Assembly: GCA_036339465.1 (NCBI GenBank)
Contig: JAYZAY010000072.1
Span: 1-38,737, forward strand
Direction: 5' to 3'
DNA: 38,737 nt
From: Myxococcota bacterium
GTDB lineage: Bacteria; Myxococcota; XYA12-FULL-58-9; JABJBS01
Shown here: positions 6,001 to 36,000 of the stretch, piece after piece
How the letters are laid out: each line of letters starts with the position of its first letter
How positions within the stretch are numbered: the stretch's first letter is position 1
Position numbers: made by a program

Positions 6001-9000
6001 ATTTTAGGTGTTTGACTTGCGATGACGCGCATGACGTTCAGCCATGCAAGCAGTCTTGGGGTGACAAAAGGCTTACCGGTGTTCATGAGGCAGACACTGA
6101 TATCCCGGTCAGGGTCGGCGTAGGCCAACACATTGGTGAACCCCAAGTGTCCGAATGCGTGGCGACTGTTGAACCCATAAAAGCTGAGATAGTCTCCACC
6201 GAGCATAAAACCCATGCTGTAGCGAACAGGCAGGGCAAGCGTTGTGTCGATTTCCATGTAGCTTTGTTCGGCCACGGCTCTTCGAATGGTGCGCTTATCG
6301 AAGAGCCGGAGTCCGTCGAGTTGACCCTCTCGGAGTAATAGCTCGAAAAATCGGCACGTCTCATTTGCGGTCGAAATAATATTTGCGGAAGGAATGATCG
6401 ATGTAAGGAAACGATGGTCATTGGAAATACGCACTGCTTCGCGAATGTCTACACCCAATGACCGCTCGAGTAGCCATCGATAGGGAACAGCGGGTGGGGG
6501 GCCGGTGTAGGCGTGTTGTGCCACCTCGGGAACGAGTTTTATAGGCACGCCGTAATTGAAATGCTTGAAATTGAGCGGAGTGGTTATTTCCTTTTCTAGG
6601 AATTGCCTAGGGTCCATCCCTGTGACTCGATAGATAATTTCACCTAGAATGAATCCACCTGTAATTGCGTGATAGGCCAAAAAGCGTCCGGGATGAGAAG
6701 TGGGTTCGGAGCGACAAAGCACATCAAGGATGGCATCGCGATTGGTCAGGATTTCTACGGGATTTTCATGGCCCGGATTATTTGGGATTCCGGCTCGGTG
6801 TGTCAAAATATGCCGAATGCTGATGTGTCTCTTTTTGCCGTGTCTGAATTCGGGAATATATTCAGCCACGGAATCGTCTACGTGGATGTCCCCTCTTTCA
6901 TCCAGTAAATGGATCAACATTGCGGTAACGACCTTCGAGGCCGAAAAAAGGTTAAAAAGGGTGTCGGGTGTAGCGAGGGTTTTCTCAACCATCGGGCTGT
7001 CATTGGGGGCATTACCTCGGGCATGACCGATGGCCCGGTCGATGACGACTTTTCCGTGCCTTCGAATGCAGAGGGAAATCGCAGGGTGCAAGCCGGTGGC
7101 ATAAAGTAGACGTACTGACTTCCAAATTTTGTCGACGTTGGTCTTACTTAGCCCTGCTTCAGAGGCGGAGACTTCCCGATTGGAAATGGTCGTTACTTCA
7201 TCAGCAGGGAAGACATTTATAAGTTGTTCAAATAACGACATTTTATCAAGGATTGTGATCTACGGGTAGTTTGGACAAGAGTTCTTGTTAAAATCAAATA
7301 GTTACCACCACATGGTCAATCTATACGGGAAAGTCAATGGATCAAGGCATCGTGGGCAAAGTTGACGAAGTCGGTATTTGTCGTGCAGAATAAAGAGAGG
7401 GCAGGGGACTAGGTAAGCCAAACAAGAAGTGGGGTGTTTATGAAGGGAGTCGACCGTCTTGGAGAAATGAATACCTCGAGGGTGGCGCAGAGCGTCCCTG
7501 AATTTAAATTATCAACTTTGGATTATCTACGGCGCCGTTATGGGCTCTCGAACTGGTTGGATACCCTACTATTGAATCATGTGGAGCGTAGGGGGTTTAA
7601 GCGTTTGTGGTTCGAAGCAAAAGAGGGGCGTCAACATGCTTTGGTGGGATCTGGCGATGGGCGCTGTGCACCCGTTGCCCTCTTACATGGTCTTGGTTCT
7701 GCATCTGTTCACTATAGTCAACTTGTGAGGTACTTGCGGCCGTACGTTAAGAGCGTGGTTATGCCTGATAATCCAGGGCATGGTTTCAGCGAACAACCAG
7801 ATGGGTTGCGGGGCCATGATGAGTTTCAGGCTACCATTAATAGCCATTTAGACAGTCTATTAAAAGAGCCTGCTTATCTTTTTGGGAATTCCTTAGGTGG
7901 ATTCGCGGCGATTCGTTATGCTCTTAGGCGGCCGGAAATGGTTAAGGGGCTGGTGCTGTGTTCCCCAGGGGGCGCCCAGATGTCAGAAGCCAAGTTGGAC
8001 GAGTTTCTTAGTCGATTCAATCTTAATAATTATAGAGAAGCGGCCGAGTTTATGGAGCAGGTTTTCGGTAAGCGACATAGGTTAACGCCTCTGATGGCGT
8101 GGAGGATCAAAGCGCGTTTTAATCGACCCCTCCTCCAATATCGTCTGAATACATTTCGTTCGAATGAGCTTCTTGATGCAGGGGAATTGAGGAGATTGCA
8201 GGTTCCTATTTTACTTATCTGGGGAAAGAGGGACAAGATTTTACCCCCAAGTTCGAAATCGTTTTTTATGGAAAACCTCCCCAAGCATGCACAGACCGTT
8301 GAACCGGAAAATTTTGGTCATGCCCCCTTTCTTCTGCACCCAAGGAAGGTGGGAGGTCTGATTGTGGATTTCATTCATGGGTGTGAGTGGGCACTGAATG
8401 TATAATTATTAAGGTCGTTTAGGGGCGTTTTTTCTTTCGCACTTGCCACGGCCTTAATTTCTTTTGAGCAATCGTCTAGAACGTGTTCCATTTATTCCAG
8501 AGTGTGGCATGATGTTGCCATGGCAATCGTGACAGCAATTGCGGCTGAGGGGGACGGTCGTCGCAAGCTCCAGCTTAAAAGTCCCGCGACCCTTAGGAAT
8601 ATAGGTGAGATCGAAGTTCAGACGGCATCTGATGTGCAAAGGGCTTTGGAGCGAGCAAAGACTGCGCAAAAGAAATGGGCCAATGTTTCGTTGGGTGATC
8701 GGGCAAAAGTCCTTTCTCGAGCACTTCAGATCCTCGTAGAGCAGCATGAAACGTATATCGATGTTTTTGTGGAGGAGTCTGGAAAGGTACCCATCGAAGC
8801 GTTGATGATTGAGATTTATGCGGCTTGCGATACGTTGCATTTCTGCGCTTCTCGTGGACCAAAATTGTTGAAGTCCCGCCGGCAAGGCCTTCACGGTGTT
8901 TTCCGGATCCTAAAGACACTTCATATCAATTACCACCCCCTAGGCGTTGTGGGGGTGATCAGTCCATGGAATGGCCCCTTTATCCTTTCTTTGGGGCCCG

Positions 9001-33000: not shown

Positions 33001-36000
33001 TAAGGCCTTATTGAATTACGAACGTTCGATGATTGGTGAGGCCATCGGGGGGCAGATGGCCCGAGTGGAAGCGGAGCTCCTTAGCCTGGCAGCAGAGTAC
33101 CGGGGTGTTGGTGGAGAGGTGCCCACAAGCTTAAAGGATACCATTGCGAAATTCTCAATGCGCGAACGTGCCTTTGTGTTAACGGTTCAAAAGGTGCGTG
33201 AGCAGTGGATATCAGGTAAAAAGCCAGGATTGGAGAGTTCAATCCTAAAGGTGGTTGGAAGTGAATTGAAGCAATGGCGGTGGGAATTGGCTGAGGAATT
33301 GCGAGGGCTTGAAGGAAGTGGATGGGCGGGAGAGGGGTTTAGCGAAGAGGCTTTAAGTGACACCAGGCAGTGGCTTCGATCTCGAGCGAACACAATTGAG
33401 GGTGGGACCACCGAAATACAACTTAATGTCATAGCCAAACGAGTCTTGGGACTGCCCCTTGATGGGAGGCGTTAATGGAACTGGGATTATGTGAAGAGGA
33501 AGTGATACTCGCGACTTCGGTGCGAGGTTTTATCGAGGCAGAATGCCCAGTATCCCGCCTCCGGGCGCTGAGGGGACTAGAACATCCACTGAATTATAGT
33601 GAGGAGATCTGGGGGGAAATGATTGAGCTTGGGTGGCTTTCCTTGGTTGAGTCCAGTGAAGACCGATGCGCCGCGCTGGCCAACATTGCCATTGTGGCTG
33701 AAGCGATGGGGCATAGCTTGTGTGTAGAGCCTTTTGTGTCTACGGCGGTTGGGGGAGTATGGGCGTTGGCGGAGCTTTCCCACGAAGAGAATCCACTGTT
33801 TGCGCGGATCAGTGAGGGAAATGCCGTCGTTGCCCATGGGTTTGGTTTAGCTAAATGGGATTCAGTTGAAAATCCTGCCGCAGCGGTATGGGTGGATTTA
33901 GTGGAAGGAAAGGAATGCCTAAATGGGGAATTGCGTTTTGTCGAGTTTGGAGCGGTGGCAGATTACGTCCTTCTACCTTTGAGTTTCAGTCATTCGGACG
34001 GATTGGGAATCGGTTTGATCAGTTTAGATGAAGCGCGTGTGGAGAGAATTCGCTTGGATCGGGTGGATGGTCGAAATGCTGCGCATTTGCGGTTTTCTCA
34101 AAGACCGCTCGGAGCTGAGGACGTGTTGATTCGGGGTTCAGAGGCGGTCGGAAAAACGCGGAAAATCTTCGATGCCTTATGTGTGGCTGCCGCAAGTGAA
34201 ATGCTGGGAGCGGCACAGGGCGCTTTTGACCGGACTCTGGACTACCTAAAGACCCGTGAGCAATTTGGTGGGCCGATTGGGGCGCTCCAAGCCTTGCAAC
34301 ATCGGGCTGCTCGGATGTTTGTTGAAATCCAGTTGGCCCGTTCTGCTGTACGAGCGGCTTCTCTTTCTTTTAATGGTGGGGACAGAGATCGTTCGTGTGC
34401 TTGTTCCATGGCCAAAGTGCTTGCGGGTGAAACGTTGTGGCTCGTGGCTAAGGAATCGGTGCAAATGCACGGCGGGGTTGGGATGACCGATGAATGCGAC
34501 ATCGGGTTTTATTTGAAGCGTGCCACGGTGATGCGTCACAGTTTGGGTGACGAGACCTTTCATCGGTCTAGATGGTCGGCCTTACGTCAGTATTAGAGGG
34601 GGTGCGTCACGGGGCCTTGGGGATTGGTGGGACCCATCTTAGTGGTTTTTCCGTTACTTTCCTTTTAAAACTGTTTCAAACCAAATCATTAGGTTGGCAT
34701 GGTGAATTTTTTTCCGAGCCGTGGGGCTCAGCACACGTGGAGGTGAATGGTGGAACCAGATTATTGGTTGTCCCGCTGGGAGGAAAGGGACATCGGCTTT
34801 CATCAAGATTGTCCTAATCCACTCCTAACCACCCTTTTTAGCCGATTAGAGCCGAAAAAAGGGGCGGGTGTTTTGGTGCCCCTCTGCGGTAAATCATTGG
34901 ACCTGTGGTGGTTACGGGAGCAAGGTCTGAAGGTTTGTGGGATCGAGGTCTCGGATATTGCGGTACGAGAGTTTTTTTCCGACGGTGCTGTGGCCCCTGT
35001 GGTTCAGAAACTCGGTGGTGGTGGCGAACGCTGTCGCATTTCGAATTTGACTCTTTTCCGCACAGACTTTTTTTCTTTGAGGGCATCGGAGCTCAACGAG
35101 CATTCCCCTATGGAGTGGCTTTATGACCGGGCTTCCCTGATCGCTCTACCGCCGGAGAAGCGGAAGAAATACCTTCAAAAGCTCCTCGAATTGGCCCCGA
35201 ATCTTTGTGGCGGACTGATGCTAACGGTTCAATACCCGTCGGGAGAAATGCATGGCCCGCCATTTTCAGTGGGACAAGAGGAAATCGAAGCTGGGCTGGG
35301 GAGGGACTTCCAAGTTGAGTGTGTTCACCGAGAAGACGTACTGCATCGTCGGGAAAAATACCGTGACTCAGGTTTAAGTCGGATGGTCGAGTGTGCGTAT
35401 TTAGTTGCCCGCAAGGGAATCGGGTGACGTGATCGGTAACGAAAGCGATTCCATGAGGCATCTTGGCATTGAATAGACCACCGTTTTTTAGGCACGTTTT
35501 GGTCGACAATTGACGGTGTTTGAGAATGATTTTGACATTAACATTGGTCTTTTAACCAAGGTCTGTGCCCTCTCTTTTGTTGTCTTTTTGAGGGAGAATG
35601 TCTTTGGGTATACGACGTGTGGGTGGTTTGAGGTAGAAAGGCTCTATTCGGACAGTCGATTTGGAAAGGGAACTATCTTGATCTTGCCTAAGAAACCCAA
35701 GGGCTCACCCGTAACGATCTCAATAGGAGAGCCCCTTGGATTTGAGGGGATTTGTGAAGTGTGATGGACTTCCGTCGGTCGTTGAGGCTCTGTAATGGGG
35801 ATTTGGAAGGTGTAGCATGGGTGCGGTTGTTGGGGGCGTTCAAGCGGCTCTGGGACTGTGGCCTGTGTTGCCACCTCCTACCTTGTCGTACCGGGTGGCG
35901 ACAGAAAAGCATCTACCCAGTTGAACTTACATGAACAATTCGAGTAACCTTTAGGGTGGACCGTGACTTGGGGATAGGGTTGGAGAGAAACCATGAAGGA

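Follow-up and report, generated by a model that had tools for sequence, protein, structure and literature searches.

We conclude that the region from about 7.4 to 34.6 kb of the contig analysed here (38,737 nucleotides, hereafter the window) probably represents the core of a KstR-type regulon for sterol catabolism, similar in kind to those of actinobacteria, in an uncultured seawater member of the Myxococcota. Metagenome runs of seawater or marine origin from four studies contain the window sequence at ≥99% identity. All genes listed in an earlier note on this DNA are present where it placed them, and its proposal of a sterol/steroid catabolic gene set of actinobacterial type was borne out, with operator counts now presenting the set as one KstR-type regulon. 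Judged by homology, the cluster comprises actinobacterial-type counterparts of a split DUF35 protein, Ltp4, Ltp3, FadD19, ChsE4/ChsE5, a KstR-like repressor, a KshA-like oxygenase, EchA19, a KSI-like protein and KstD, together with a second predicted acyl-CoA dehydrogenase (ACAD) pair and a putative RND/DUF1302/SCP2 module. Our literature searches turned up no account of steroid catabolism in this phylum, in line with the novelty claimed earlier; new here is the KstR-type operator shared across the sterol genes, which points to a single regulon.

The mycobacterial KstR operator, defined as the 14-bp palindrome TnnAACnnGTTnnA and listed with near-identical instances in PMC1995591, occurs in eight copies in the window versus 0.75 expected, a number reached in 0 of 100 shuffles. 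One copy (7548-7561) falls within the alpha/beta hydrolase ORF at 7434-8405 and is doubtful, while the other seven sit at promoters:

8477-8490, KstR-type operator TAGAACGTGTTCCA, 12 nt upstream of the aldehyde dehydrogenase start, core matching exactly a KstR site of M. smegmatis in PMC1995591
10092-10105, KstR-type operator TGAAACATGTTGCA, upstream of the DUF35 N-half gene
15891-15904, KstR-type operator TGAAACATGTTTCA, 22 nt upstream of ChsE4
20578-20591, KstR-type operator TGAAACATGTTCTA, divergent region between TMEM254 and EchA19
23458-23471, KstR-type operator TAGAACACGTTTCA, between the KSI-like gene and KstD
30114-30127, KstR-type operator TGAAACGTGTTCTA, 23 nt upstream of SCP2
32254-32267, KstR-type operator TGGAACGTGTTCTA, 3 nt upstream of the second ACAD pair, core matching exactly a site of M. 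smegmatis in PMC1995591

Across the whole genome, the strict form occurs 15 times versus about four expected, with six occurrences on the contig of the window and others upstream of SDR-FadD3 (C23), an IpdE-like pair (C33), a GMC oxidoreductase (C24), an NMO-family gene (C35) and an SDR (C86); looser copies precede two P450 genes. Relatives likewise carry operators at their steroid loci, among them the hsa operons and, in G003, the divergent region separating RND and SnoaL. Three same-family genomes (G001, G003 and G004) share the order KshA-TMEM254-EchA19-ligase-SnoaL-KstD(paralogue)-RND-LolA-like-DUF1302-SCP2-ACAD pair, and this conservation, together with the operator excess in the window, led to the conclusion that the co-location of the cluster is beyond chance. 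The candidate regulator is encoded within the cluster:

18232-18840, plus strand, KstR-like TetR repressor (TetR_N and TetR_C_20; KstR model 124 bits, below the cut-off of 280)

The repressor gene apparently belongs to the ChsE4-ChsE5 operon, its product is 52-54% identical to the L067/L068 counterparts, and its presumed operator is the one enriched in the window. We propose that the protein binds TnnAACnnGTTnnA at the seven window promoters and at those located on six or more further contigs, from which it would be released by a steroid intermediate.

The aldehyde dehydrogenase, the second ACAD pair and the genes with a predicted role in CoA activation or side-chain degradation are as follows:

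8502-10064, plus strand, aldehyde dehydrogenase (Aldedh 448 bits)
10138-10596, plus strand, N-terminal half of a tandem-DUF35 (Rv3521-type) protein as a separate gene, aligning to residues 2-148 of a 315-aa G030 protein
10589-11086, plus strand, C-terminal DUF35 half with zinc ribbon and OB fold, ChsH2-type (OB_ChsH2_C 43.8 bits, zf-ChsH2 24.3 bits)
11083-12150, plus strand, Ltp4-type thiolase-like lipid-transfer protein, aldol-lyase subunit (PRK07937 463 bits, cut-off 419)
12143-13300, plus strand, Ltp3-type thiolase-like protein (PRK08313 666 bits, cut-off 514)
13320-14924, plus strand, FadD19-type steroid-acyl-CoA ligase (PRK07798 667 bits, cut-off 543)
15926-17098, plus strand, ChsE4 (FadE26)-type ACAD, alpha subunit (top match among solved structures 4x28_A at 451 bits, full length, followed by Tcur3483 at 400 bits)
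17101-18204, plus strand, ChsE5 (FadE27)-type partner subunit (ACAD N- and C-terminal domains; shares 35% identity with the corresponding partner gene of G030)
20617-21417, plus strand, EchA19-type enoyl-CoA hydratase (PRK07799 364 bits, cut-off 316; EchA19 model 352 bits, below 400)
21423-22976, minus strand, second acyl-CoA ligase, a steroid-acid ligase candidate (AMP-binding 233 bits; best NCBIfam model FadD4, 481 bits, below 850)
32270-33475 and 33475-34596, plus strand, second heteromeric ACAD pair (Pfam ACAD domains)

The N-terminal DUF35 half alone gave no Pfam match; the C-terminal half aligns to residues 159-315 of the same G030 protein, its start overlaps the stop of the N-half by 8 nt, and the junction is bridged unchanged by a contig of run X7. 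The position of the aldehyde dehydrogenase ahead of DUF35-Ltp4-Ltp3 matches G030:C28 and L064/L066, and the Ltp3 model scores above its cut-off in four of five same-family genomes. No ACAD middle-domain match was obtained for the ChsE5-type subunit with Pfam, and the second protein of the second ACAD pair has the C-terminal domain only; this pair reaches 115 bits with the IpdE2 model (below 450) and 159 and 144 bits with the solved structures Tcur3483 and 4x28, respectively, and is 60-61% identical in G003 and L067/L068. Homologues of the second ligase (51-63% identical) occur in the clusters of G001, G004, G039 and L067/L068. Substrates are inferred for all enzymes of the cluster from such homologies: FadD19 and the second ligase would form CoA thioesters, and the side chain would be shortened by ChsE4-ChsE5, EchA19 and the DUF35-Ltp4-Ltp3 aldol-lyase set. 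An excerpt of PMC6273163 describes FadD19 and Ltp3/Ltp4 as required for C24-branched sterols only in actinobacteria.

Ring-modifying candidates and further genes are interspersed with or flank this set:

5994-7241, minus strand, LipE-like serine esterase of beta-lactamase fold, a peripheral member (Beta-lactamase 196 bits; LipE 341 bits, below 750)
7434-8405, plus strand, alpha/beta hydrolase (66.7 bits with the HsaD model, cut-off 400)
14948-15703, plus strand, short-chain dehydrogenase, candidate 3beta-HSD (adh_short_C2 204 bits; best solved structures are generic SDRs)
18833-19861, plus strand, KshA-like Rieske oxygenase (Rieske 77 bits, KshA_C 143 bits)
20073-20474, minus strand, small membrane protein with a TMEM254-family match (PF14934 40.7 bits)
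23001-23465, minus strand, ketosteroid-isomerase-like NTF2-fold protein (SnoaL_2 69 bits)
23483-25243, plus strand, 3-ketosteroid delta-1-dehydrogenase, KstD (best solved structure 7p18, 546 bits full length, versus 270 bits for the KstD 4c3x)
30496-31617, minus strand, saccharopine-dehydrogenase-like NAD(P) oxidoreductase (Sacchrp_dh_NADP 49 bits)
31677-32225, plus strand, DUF2505 protein (PF10698 41.9 bits)

Among solved structures, the KshA-like oxygenase matches KshA itself best (4qdc, 175 bits); the CxH/CxxH, HxxxxH and Asp positions align, and a 73% identical protein is found in G001:C274. The KSI-like protein matches 6p3l at 53.7 bits and steroid delta-isomerases at about 28-44 bits; its Tyr/Asp/Asp positions, taken as those of the functional residues, align. 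KstD scores 595 and 579 bits with its NCBIfam models (cut-offs 789 and 788), and KstR, KstD and EchA19 all lie under NCBIfam equivalog cut-offs; homologues of KstD with 47-55% identity are present in numerous MAGs whose titles name Myxococcota or one of its subgroups. Genes 49-50% identical to the SDR lie within the L064/L066 clusters, and the TMEM254-like gene occupies the same position in G001 and G004 (43-45% identical). A possible steryl-ester hydrolase role is suggested for the LipE-like esterase; on G039:C17, a 43% identical version is encoded roughly 2 kb away from KstD. The alpha/beta hydrolase was rejected as an HsaD orthologue on the basis of its model score and its 26-27% identity to the HsaD-position genes of relatives. 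In the proposed sequence, 3-keto-4-ene steroid acids would be made by CYP125/142-like P450s (C24, C9), the KSI-like protein and either the GMC oxidoreductase (C24) or an SDR; their ring B would next be broken by KstD and KshA. As no squalene/oxidosqualene cyclase (SQHop_cyclase) was found in the genome, the sterols would be exogenous, which supports the earlier suggestion of a foreign sterol as substrate.

Three consecutive genes form the putative transporter module:

25382-28306, plus strand, RND inner-membrane transporter of HAE3/MMPL type (MMPL 160 bits, Sterol-sensing 39.7, Patched 31.8; HAE3 model 204 bits, below 352)
28436-30001, plus strand, DUF1302-family outer-membrane beta-barrel (DUF1302 32.9 bits; Atlas structure TM 0.80 to a DUF1302 cluster)
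30150-30503, plus strand, stand-alone SCP2 sterol-carrier-domain protein (SCP2 64 bits)

Among solved structures, the RND protein matches MmpL4/5 (70 bits), Dispatched (34) and HpnN (32), and no Patched or NPC1 chain at E≤1e-3; the previous designation as a Patched/NPC1-like sterol transporter thus over-reads weak Pfam matches and is replaced here by the MMPL/HAE3 type. Orthologues with 50-53% identity occupy the same place in all three same-family genomes compared, and the DUF1302 gene is syntenic in G001, G003 and G004. Read by eye, the DUF1302 protein has an N-terminal hydrophobic leader and the C-terminus ...RYSF, and the SCP2 protein shows no hydrophobic leader and is probably cytoplasmic; homologues of the latter (47-56% identical) lie in the G003, L064 and L066 clusters. 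The three proteins, predicted to share one regulon, probably move sterols or steroid intermediates across the two-membrane envelope. Of the suggestion that the RND protein serves sterol uptake instead of Mce4, one part stands, as a single MlaD-domain match and no Mce4 system was found in the genome; import itself is a putative role.

Our searches also reproduced the satellite clusters reported before. C23 carries FadD3 (NF005801 715.4 bits, cut-off 657) together with a thiolase gene and an RND gene accompanied by a LolA-like one; an ACAD pair, an SDR (PRK07831 431 bits, cut-off 336) and a MaoC pair precede the contig end of C33; and CYP125/CYP142-like P450s are encoded on C9 and C24, the best solved structures for the C9 protein being of the CYP125 family (398/284 bits). 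The C/D-ring acid would be handled by FadD3, the IpdE-like ACAD pair, the IpdF-type SDR, the MaoC pair and the thiolase. On C89, a second KshA-like gene adjoins two LigB-type genes, which had been put forward as ring-opening candidates. These are unlikely substitutes: the same pair occurs in G001 and G004, both of which carry HsaC, and no KstR-type operator was found beside it.

The absences of HsaA, HsaC, KshB and Mce4 noted earlier were confirmed by HMM searches of the 92.78% complete genome, in which HsaA and HsaC gave no match at E≤1e-3, KshB was not recognised (one NAD_binding_1 match only), and no HsaE/F/G, IpdA/B or Amidohydro_2 partner was detected; the sole CoA-transferase pair is of ScoA/ScoB type. 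With relatives' proteins as queries, tblastn likewise revealed no HsaA, HsaC, HsaD orthologue, HsaE/F/G, IpdA/B or Amidohydro_2 partner in the assembly. Together with the missing HsaD orthologue, these results do not sustain the view of a working pathway, as the assembly appears to hold the upper part and some of the lower part of the 9,10-seco pathway only, while relatives carry the missing genes. In a 401-genome phylum sample, HsaA was detected at 377-444 bits in four of five same-family genomes and four of six genomes of a second family (f18), so that the trait is not peculiar to this genome; HsaC adjoins HsaA in all five genomes checked. A single 41.6-kb contig (G039:C17) encodes HsaA, HsaC, HsaE, HsaG, HsaF, an IpdAB-like pair, an NMO-type gene, FadD3 and KstD. 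Because relatives possess the hsa genes searched for and G039 the IpdAB-like pair, the complete pathway can be assigned to the lineage on the basis of gene content, but not to this genome. We regard an assembly or binning gap as a reasonably probable cause of the hsa/ipdAB/kshB absence. Real loss seems less probable, and it does occur in the family, since G002 (94% complete) lacks KstD, HsaA, FadD3 and Ltp3; in the present genome, contigs run uninterrupted and without hsa genes through two sites where relatives have them, beside the DUF35-Ltp orthologue (C1) and the S9 peptidase orthologue (C24).

Among known systems, RND and DUF1302 proteins (with or without LolA-like/DUF1329) constitute a known module of Proteobacteria that is also present in the C. 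testosteroni steroid cluster; the transporter operon described here is without LolA-like and SRPBCC genes, whereas relatives have both. In R. opacus the DUF35 protein is a single ORF instead of two genes, while fadD19 (44% identical, adjoining echA19), echA19 (56%) and DUF35-Ltp4-Ltp3 (51, 50 and 67%) follow the same order as in the window.

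Scanning the open reading frames of the window with Pfam and NCBIfam models revealed a set of lipid and steroid catabolic genes between 7.4 and 34.6 kb. The window is contig C72 in full and belongs to a metagenome bin of 4.17 Mb in 102 contigs (48.9% GC, 92.78% complete, 1.44% contaminated).

Genes of the cluster in their order along the contig, with the matches on which the names rest

7434-8405, alpha/beta hydrolase, followed by an aldehyde dehydrogenase
10138-10596 and 10589-11086, DUF35 protein (zinc ribbon and OB), split over two genes
lipid-transfer thiolase-like protein, Ltp4-type (PRK07937, 463 bits, cut-off 419)
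lipid-transfer thiolase-like protein, Ltp3-type (PRK08313, 666 bits, cut-off 514)
acyl-CoA ligase, FadD19-type (PRK07798, 667 bits, cut-off 543), with an SDR downstream
first acyl-CoA dehydrogenase (ACAD) pair, ChsE4/ChsE5-type (first subunit 451 bits against 4x28_A)
TetR regulator (TetR_N and TetR_C_20; KstR model NF033703 123.6 bits, cut-off 280)
oxygenase with Rieske and KshA_C domains (Pfam)
20073-20474 (minus strand), TMEM254-like membrane protein of 133 aa (40.7 bits, eukaryotic TMEM254 family)
enoyl-CoA hydratase (PRK07799, 364 bits, cut-off 316; EchA19 model 352 bits, under its cut-off of 400)
second ligase and a SnoaL_2 protein (Pfam/NCBIfam)
23483-25243, KstD-type flavoprotein (NCBIfam KstD models 595 and 579 bits, under their cut-offs of 789 and 788)
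25382-28306, RND transporter, followed by DUF1302, SCP2, saccharopine-dehydrogenase-like and DUF2505 proteins and then the second ACAD pair

Searches against solved structures agree with a steroid reading of the cluster. The KstD-type protein matched 7p18, which we take to be the 3-oxosteroid 1-dehydrogenase AcmB of Sterolibacterium denitrificans, over its full length; the 546 bits reached are roughly double those obtained with Rhodococcus KstD1 (4c3x). The first ACAD subunit found its counterpart in 4x28, presumably ChsE4-ChsE5 of M. tuberculosis, and the oxygenase reached 175 bits against KshA (4qdc), with the CxH, CxxH, HxxxxH and Asp positions of the Rieske and iron ligands aligned. Ketosteroid isomerases were among the matches of the SnoaL protein. 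An assignment of the SDR at 14948-15703 as 3beta-HSD could not be established, as its best solved structures were generic SDRs. Cholesterol oxidases belong to the GMC oxidoreductase family, and a GMC oxidoreductase of 538 aa encoded on another contig (C24:53454-55070, minus strand) is another protein that might oxidise the 3-hydroxyl group in the first step.

Three genes lie upstream of the cluster, at positions 1-5103. One, cut at its 5' end, encodes a FAD-linked oxidase (FAD_binding_4 and FAD-oxidase_C), another an 891-aa protein that joins a fatty-acyl reductase domain (NAD_binding_4) to a PlsC-type acyltransferase, and the third a member of the epimerase family similar to HpnA/SdmB; together they presumably resemble the myxobacterial ether-lipid gene set (alkyl-DHAP synthase route). 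On the other side follow a thiopurine S-methyltransferase gene (34747-35427; 223.7 bits, cut-off 213), a response regulator gene and, truncated by the contig end, a gene for a CheA-like hybrid kinase, and no KstR-type operator was found near any of these three.

The side-chain genes have clustered counterparts in actinobacteria. On the chromosome of R. opacus, the best matches lie together as fadD19 (44% identity), echA19 (56%), DUF35 (51%), Ltp4-type (50%) and Ltp3-type (67%) genes, the last three in the same order as in the window. We take the actinobacterial module to be fadD19-echA19 ... Rv3521-ltp4-ltp3 in Rv numbering. According to passages of PMC6273163, FadD19 and the aldol-lyases Ltp3 and Ltp4 are required for C24-branched sterols and dispensable for cholesterol. 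The window encodes the same proteins as this module of Rhodococcus rhodochrous and M. smegmatis and differs from it in that FadD19 directly follows Ltp3 and in the divided DUF35 gene. The tandem-DUF35 protein is a single reading frame in R. opacus and in the comparison genome G030, whereas the two genes of the window meet in an 8-nt stop/start overlap (ATGTCTGA) precisely at the inter-domain linker. A contig from an independent run spans this junction without change.

Further evidence for a common function came from the control regions. The window was searched for the mycobacterial KstR palindrome TnnAACnnGTTnnA (14 bp), as given in the abstract and Table 3 of PMC1995591, and eight copies were found against 0.75 expected, a number reached in none of 100 shuffles. 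Seven of the eight are intergenic and lie about 50 nt or less upstream of start codons.

Putative KstR-type operators of the cluster

8477, before the aldehyde dehydrogenase gene
10092, before the DUF35 gene
15891, before ChsE4
20578, between the TMEM254-like gene and EchA19
23458, between the SnoaL_2 (KSI-like) gene and KstD
30114, before SCP2
32254, before the second ACAD pair

The eighth copy, at 7548, was discounted as a weak variant inside the reading frame of the hydrolase. The regulator gene itself apparently sits inside the ChsE4-ChsE5 operon behind one of the operators. The TMEM254-like gene stands beside EchA19 across an operator, a place that is kept in two genomes of the same family.

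Genome-wide, the loose motif occurs at background level (72 copies, about 64 expected), whereas the strict form T[AG][AG]AACNNGTT[CT][CT]A was found 15 times against about four expected, six of them on this contig. Elsewhere, strict copies precede an SDR-FadD3 operon (C23), an IpdE-like pair (C33), an SDR (C86), an NMO-family gene (C35) whose product is 38% identical to that of the IpdC-position gene of the comparison genome G039, and the GMC oxidoreductase gene on C24 (a perfect palindrome at C24:55122, 52 nt before the start). Looser copies precede P450 genes on C24 and C43; matches on C22 (at a protease gene) and C54 (inside a reading frame or with no gene near) look like chance. As operators before scattered genes are independent evidence that those genes act together, we infer one KstR-type regulon that would unite the window with its satellite loci through binding of the repressor. 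Lone KstD homologues with no other panel gene within 10 kb were also observed with a KstR-type palindrome about 50 nt before the start, in several MAGs titled delta proteobacterium or Myxococcales (loci L045, L051, L057, L060 and L061, at about 9920-9950) and in two genomes of the same family (G001:C165, L124, at 11094; G003:C320, L125, at 16874). KstR-type control of scattered steroid genes may thus be widespread in the phylum.

Some myxobacteria make sterols, and the genes could accordingly serve to build or tailor the cell's own sterols rather than degrade foreign ones, in line with the weak matches of the product of 4039-5103 to SdmB (100 bits, cut-off 600) and HpnA (149 bits, cut-off 368). 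Against this, no squalene-hopene or oxidosqualene cyclase domain was found in the genome, which makes self-made sterols unlikely; the KshA-like protein reached only 60 bits on the SdmA model (cut-off 600), and the set consists mostly of CoA ligases, ACADs, hydratases and thiolase-like lyases under the motif of a catabolic repressor. We therefore rejected a biosynthetic role, which we consider extremely improbable.

The satellite genes named in the earlier note are all present, on C23, C33, C89, C9 and C24. C23 carries an SDR, FadD3, a thiolase (PRK07851, 578 bits against a cut-off of 580), a DUF952 gene, an RND gene and a LolA-like gene; FadD3, the HIP-CoA ligase (C23:12446-14122), scored 715.4 bits on NF005801, above the cut-off of 657. 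C33 holds an ACAD pair (IpdE2 model 159 bits, under the cut-off of 450), an SDR (PRK07831, 431 bits against 336) and a MaoC pair, after which the contig ends. The P450s on C9 and C24 have their best matches in the CYP125/CYP142 families. A further P450 frame (C58:27843-28489) is broken by stops, with TGA and TAG inside two matched pieces, and is probably a pseudogene. C89 encodes a second KshA-like protein near two LigB-type genes, a locus at which we found no operator. The LigB pair and the second KshA-like protein were set aside as unlikely substitutes for HsaC and HsaA, since the pair also occurs in two same-family genomes (G001 and G004) that have HsaC.

The note had claimed a working pathway and had itself recorded the absence of HsaA, HsaC, KshB and Mce4. 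Domain and HMM searches of the 92.78%-complete genome upheld these absences: HsaA and HsaC had no HMM match at E<=1e-3; the sole NAD_binding_1 match in the genome, on C47, left no candidate for the Fer2, FAD_binding_6 and NAD_binding_1 combination of KshB; and one MlaD-domain match in the whole genome compares with the several MlaD-domain Mce proteins and YrbE permeases of Mce4. A reductase other than KshB may serve KshA. A tblastn search with 20 proteins of the relatives' hsa and ipd loci gave no orthologue of HsaA, HsaC, HsaE, HsaG, HsaF, IpdA/B or the Amidohydro_2 partner. As HsaD, the hydrolase at 7434-8405 reached only 66.7 bits against a cut-off of 400 and is 27% identical to the product of the relatives' HsaD-position gene. 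The only two CoA_trans genes are both of ScoA/ScoB type, above the cut-offs of those models, and the IpdA-like protein of G039 aligned with the genome at 27% identity over 135 residues only. Hence, KstD, KshA and FadD3 stand, while KshB, HsaA, HsaC, HsaD/E/F/G and IpdAB were not found in the assembly. This lack of ring-opening genes keeps our claim for the genome itself modest.

Several of these genes occur in relatives. Among the best 80 of 597 relatives obtained with a six-protein KstD alignment, the nearest homologues (47-55% identity) come mostly from MAGs titled Myxococcota, Myxococcales, Polyangiaceae, Nannocystaceae, Sandaracinaceae or Deltaproteobacteria, followed by Actinomycetota (37-46%). 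Within a phylum sample of 401 genomes, KstD (E<=1e-100) was detected in 14 genomes in total, with four of the five genomes of the same family, four of six in family f18, five of 172 in the large-genome family f17 and none in other families. HsaA (E<=1e-60) was detected in 22, namely four of five, four of six, 14 of 172 and none in other families; its scores were 377-444 bits in the same family and f18, near the cut-off of 450, and 209-344 bits in f17. HsaC adjoins HsaA in all five genomes checked. G039, which is grouped in the same phylum as this genome, has a 41.6-kb contig (C17, locus L065) that combines HsaA, HsaC, HsaE, HsaG and HsaF with an IpdAB-like pair, an NMO-type gene, FadD3, ACAD pairs, MaoC, KstD and a ligase. 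Four large, seemingly complete genomes of genus g82 (G156, G173, G190 and G218; about 10.3 Mb in 1-2 contigs) carry two KstD homologues each (47-48% and 39-40%), 37-43 kb apart, and are not among the HsaA matches at E<=1e-60.

Genomes of the same family share the gene order of the window, with KshA (73% identity), TMEM254, EchA19 (68%), ligase (61%), SnoaL, a KstD paralogue (31%), an SRPBCC protein, RND (50-53%), LolA-like, DUF1302, SCP2 (56%) and the ACAD pair (60%/37%). KstR-type operators occur in all these relatives' loci, before hsa operons and in the divergent RND/SnoaL region of G003. The arrangement most like the window was observed in two MAG contigs titled 'uncultured Rickettsiales' (L067 and L068), a label that may not fit: ligase, EchA19 (62-64%), KstR (52-54%), KshA (57%) and KstD (53%) are followed by hsaF-G...C-A and the ACAD pair (60-61%), with four identical palindromes TGAAACGTGTTTCA in each. 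The hsa genes thus lie between KstD and the ACAD pair, where the same-family genomes have RND-DUF1302-SCP2.

Two further explanations were weighed. The contig might stem from another organism, given that the genome is a metagenome bin of many contigs and that the enzymes are highly identical to those of Rhodococcus. We give this hardly any credence: the GC content (50.1%) is close to that of the genome, the gene order is common to same-family genomes, of which four of five carry the genes, and steroid genes on six or more further contigs of the bin stand behind the operator found here. Alternatively, several scores under equivalog cut-offs would suit a cluster that degrades a non-steroid branched or cyclic lipid, isoprenoid or similar, by steroid-like beta-oxidation enzymes. 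This seems very improbable on these comparisons, as KstD, KshA_C, the KSI-like protein, FadD3 above its cut-off, the CYP125-like P450s and the relatives' HsaA and HsaC are specific to the steroid nucleus.

Two readings remain for the missing ring-opening genes. The organism may have kept side-chain, ring A/B and some C/D-ring genes and truly lost hsa and ipdAB. Its gain would then be limited to the carbon of the side chain, or it would trade seco-steroid or HIP-type intermediates with other bacteria. Despite the high completeness and low contamination, nine or more genes of two or more loci are missing; both sites syntenic to the relatives' hsa loci lie inside long uninterrupted contigs without hsa genes; the same-family genome G002 (94% complete) lacks the whole set, so that complete loss does occur in the family; and this genome has a reduced transporter operon and a split DUF35 gene. 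However, the remaining genes are intact with their operators kept, and FadD3 and the IpdE/IpdF-type genes would have no known substrate unless HsaD-type cleavage took place upstream. We regard a true loss as a serious possibility, albeit with less than even confidence.

The other reading is a gap in the assembly. Population coverage was only 1-9x in the four runs mapped, RND paralogues lie at the start or end of several contigs, and C33 breaks off directly behind its steroid operon. The relatives' hsa genes lie on contigs of 7-15 kb and less complete relatives drop FadD3, which indicates that such gaps are common. RND paralogues of HAE3-type were observed at contig ends at C1:22-990, C71:1-957 and C60:43469-44807, with six family matches in G001, and such repeats may be places where the assembly breaks. 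A 30-base stretch from the end of C33 gave no match in the metagenome contigs searched. Reads mapped to the window with at least 99% identity and no indels.

As to uptake, the note had proposed that sterols enter through Patched/NPC1-like RND transporters instead of Mce4. This assignment had to be rejected. Although the Pfam matches of the 974-residue RND protein to the sterol-sensing domain (SSD, 39.7 bits) and Patched (31.8 bits) are real, they are weak next to MMPL (160 bits), and HAE3 is its top NCBIfam model; BstA (56 bits, cut-off 1400) and HpnN (118 bits, cut-off 752) models scored far lower than their thresholds. Among solved structures, it matched MmpL4/5 (70 bits), Dispatched (34 bits) and HpnN (32 bits), and no Patched or NPC1 chain at E<=1e-3.

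The DUF1302 barrel gene directly follows the RND gene in the window, which has neither a LolA-like/DUF1329 gene nor a BNR protein. In the relatives, a LolA_like gene (98-102 bits) with a faint DUF1329 match (21 bits) stands between the two. Conserved synteny and operators support a link of this module to sterols; the direction, import or export, is not settled by them. By eye, no leader peptide is seen in the SCP2 protein, which would therefore work inside the cytoplasm and not as an NPC2-like partner in the periplasm. We tentatively propose, as a rather doubtful model, that the KstR-controlled RND protein, a LolA-like periplasmic carrier (in the relatives), the DUF1302 barrel and cytoplasmic SCP2 would form a dedicated sterol uptake route of two-membrane bacteria, in which an inward-working RND system takes on the task that Mce4 has in mycobacteria, similar to the NPC2-to-NPC1 hand-off of animal cells. 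If true, free-living marine Myxococcota could feed on eukaryotic sterols via RND uptake.

The same proteins could instead point outward, removing toxic steroid intermediates or, like HpnN, BstA and MmpL proteins, delivering a lipid to the outer membrane, with sterols entering by another route. The nearest solved relatives (MmpL4/5, Dispatched, HpnN) are exporters, many RND paralogues exist in these genomes, and family f18 has the pathway and no RND orthologue at E<=1e-30. According to preprint 10.1101/072470, DUF1302, DUF1329, BNR and RND genes form a conserved co-fit module of Proteobacteria that recurs in catabolic islands for hydrophobic compounds and has been proposed to export an envelope component, while the DUF1329 protein ORF61, although in the steroid cluster of Comamonas testosteroni, is reportedly dispensable for steroid degradation. 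On the other hand, the module adjoins KstD-type and KSI-like genes in three of three same-family genomes, where KstR-type operators precede its operon, a second RND and LolA-like gene follows the operator-headed FadD3 operon, and neither Mce4 nor any other uptake candidate was seen in the regulon. For this second, C23-type RND and FadD3, the contigs of relatives are 2.6-3.9 kb long, too short to show adjacency. An RND beside KstD was seen as one weak match (L073, 27%) among the matches listed for the best 80 of 597 KstD loci. We consider export quite conceivable, if short of an even chance.

No account of steroid or cholesterol degradation, KstD or KshA in Myxococcota or myxobacteria was found in the openly accessible main texts searched, and the full texts of two surveys (PMC4810484, PMC5790920) contain neither 'Deltaproteobacteria' nor 'Myxococc-'. 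Overall, with all functions predicted from sequence, the data describe what would be a known pathway that occurs with its known regulator in a host group new for it and is linked there to an envelope module of proteobacterial type. The actinobacterial version, its repressor's operator included, is present in small-genome marine lineages grouped in Myxococcota. This suggests that an entire regulon was transferred between phyla or has been shared by them since very early times, and a seawater group thereby joins the consumers of sterols from algae and animals. The cited literature describes steroid uptake outside mycolic-acid bacteria as unknown; the operator offers a simple sequence probe for the remaining regulon members, candidate envelope transporters included, and makes this open question testable.

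Compared with the KstR regulon of Mycobacterium and Rhodococcus, the cluster likewise contains a TetR repressor gene and has the same palindrome of 14 bp, with cores that recur unchanged among the listed sites of M. smegmatis, and shares FadD19, EchA19, Ltp3/Ltp4, ChsE4/ChsE5, KshA, KstD, FadD3, IpdE/IpdF-type and CYP125-type proteins (44-67% identity where measured). It differs in its Myxococcota-affiliated seawater host, in the RND, DUF1302 and SCP2 genes within the cluster, and in that this genome is without Mce4, HsaA/C/E/F/G, IpdAB and KshB. Moreover, the C/D-ring genes of actinobacteria are under a separate regulon (PMC4810484), whereas here a single type of operator stands before the FadD3 and IpdE-like operons as well. 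With the Mce4 importer of mycolic-acid bacteria the transporter shares no homology, but possibly the same job of sterol entry for a KstR regulon. It belongs to the RND superfamily together with Patched, NPC1, Dispatched, HpnN and BstA and has weak SSD and Patched matches, yet its best matches set it apart from these as MMPL/HAE3. It also resembles the proteobacterial DUF1302/DUF1329/BNR/RND (COG1033) module, with which it shares an HAE3/COG1033 RND gene beside a DUF1302 barrel and, in the relatives, a LolA-like gene with faint DUF1329 similarity; unlike that module, no BNR gene was seen, the LolA-like gene is absent at the window site, and the genes are tied to a KstR-type operator.
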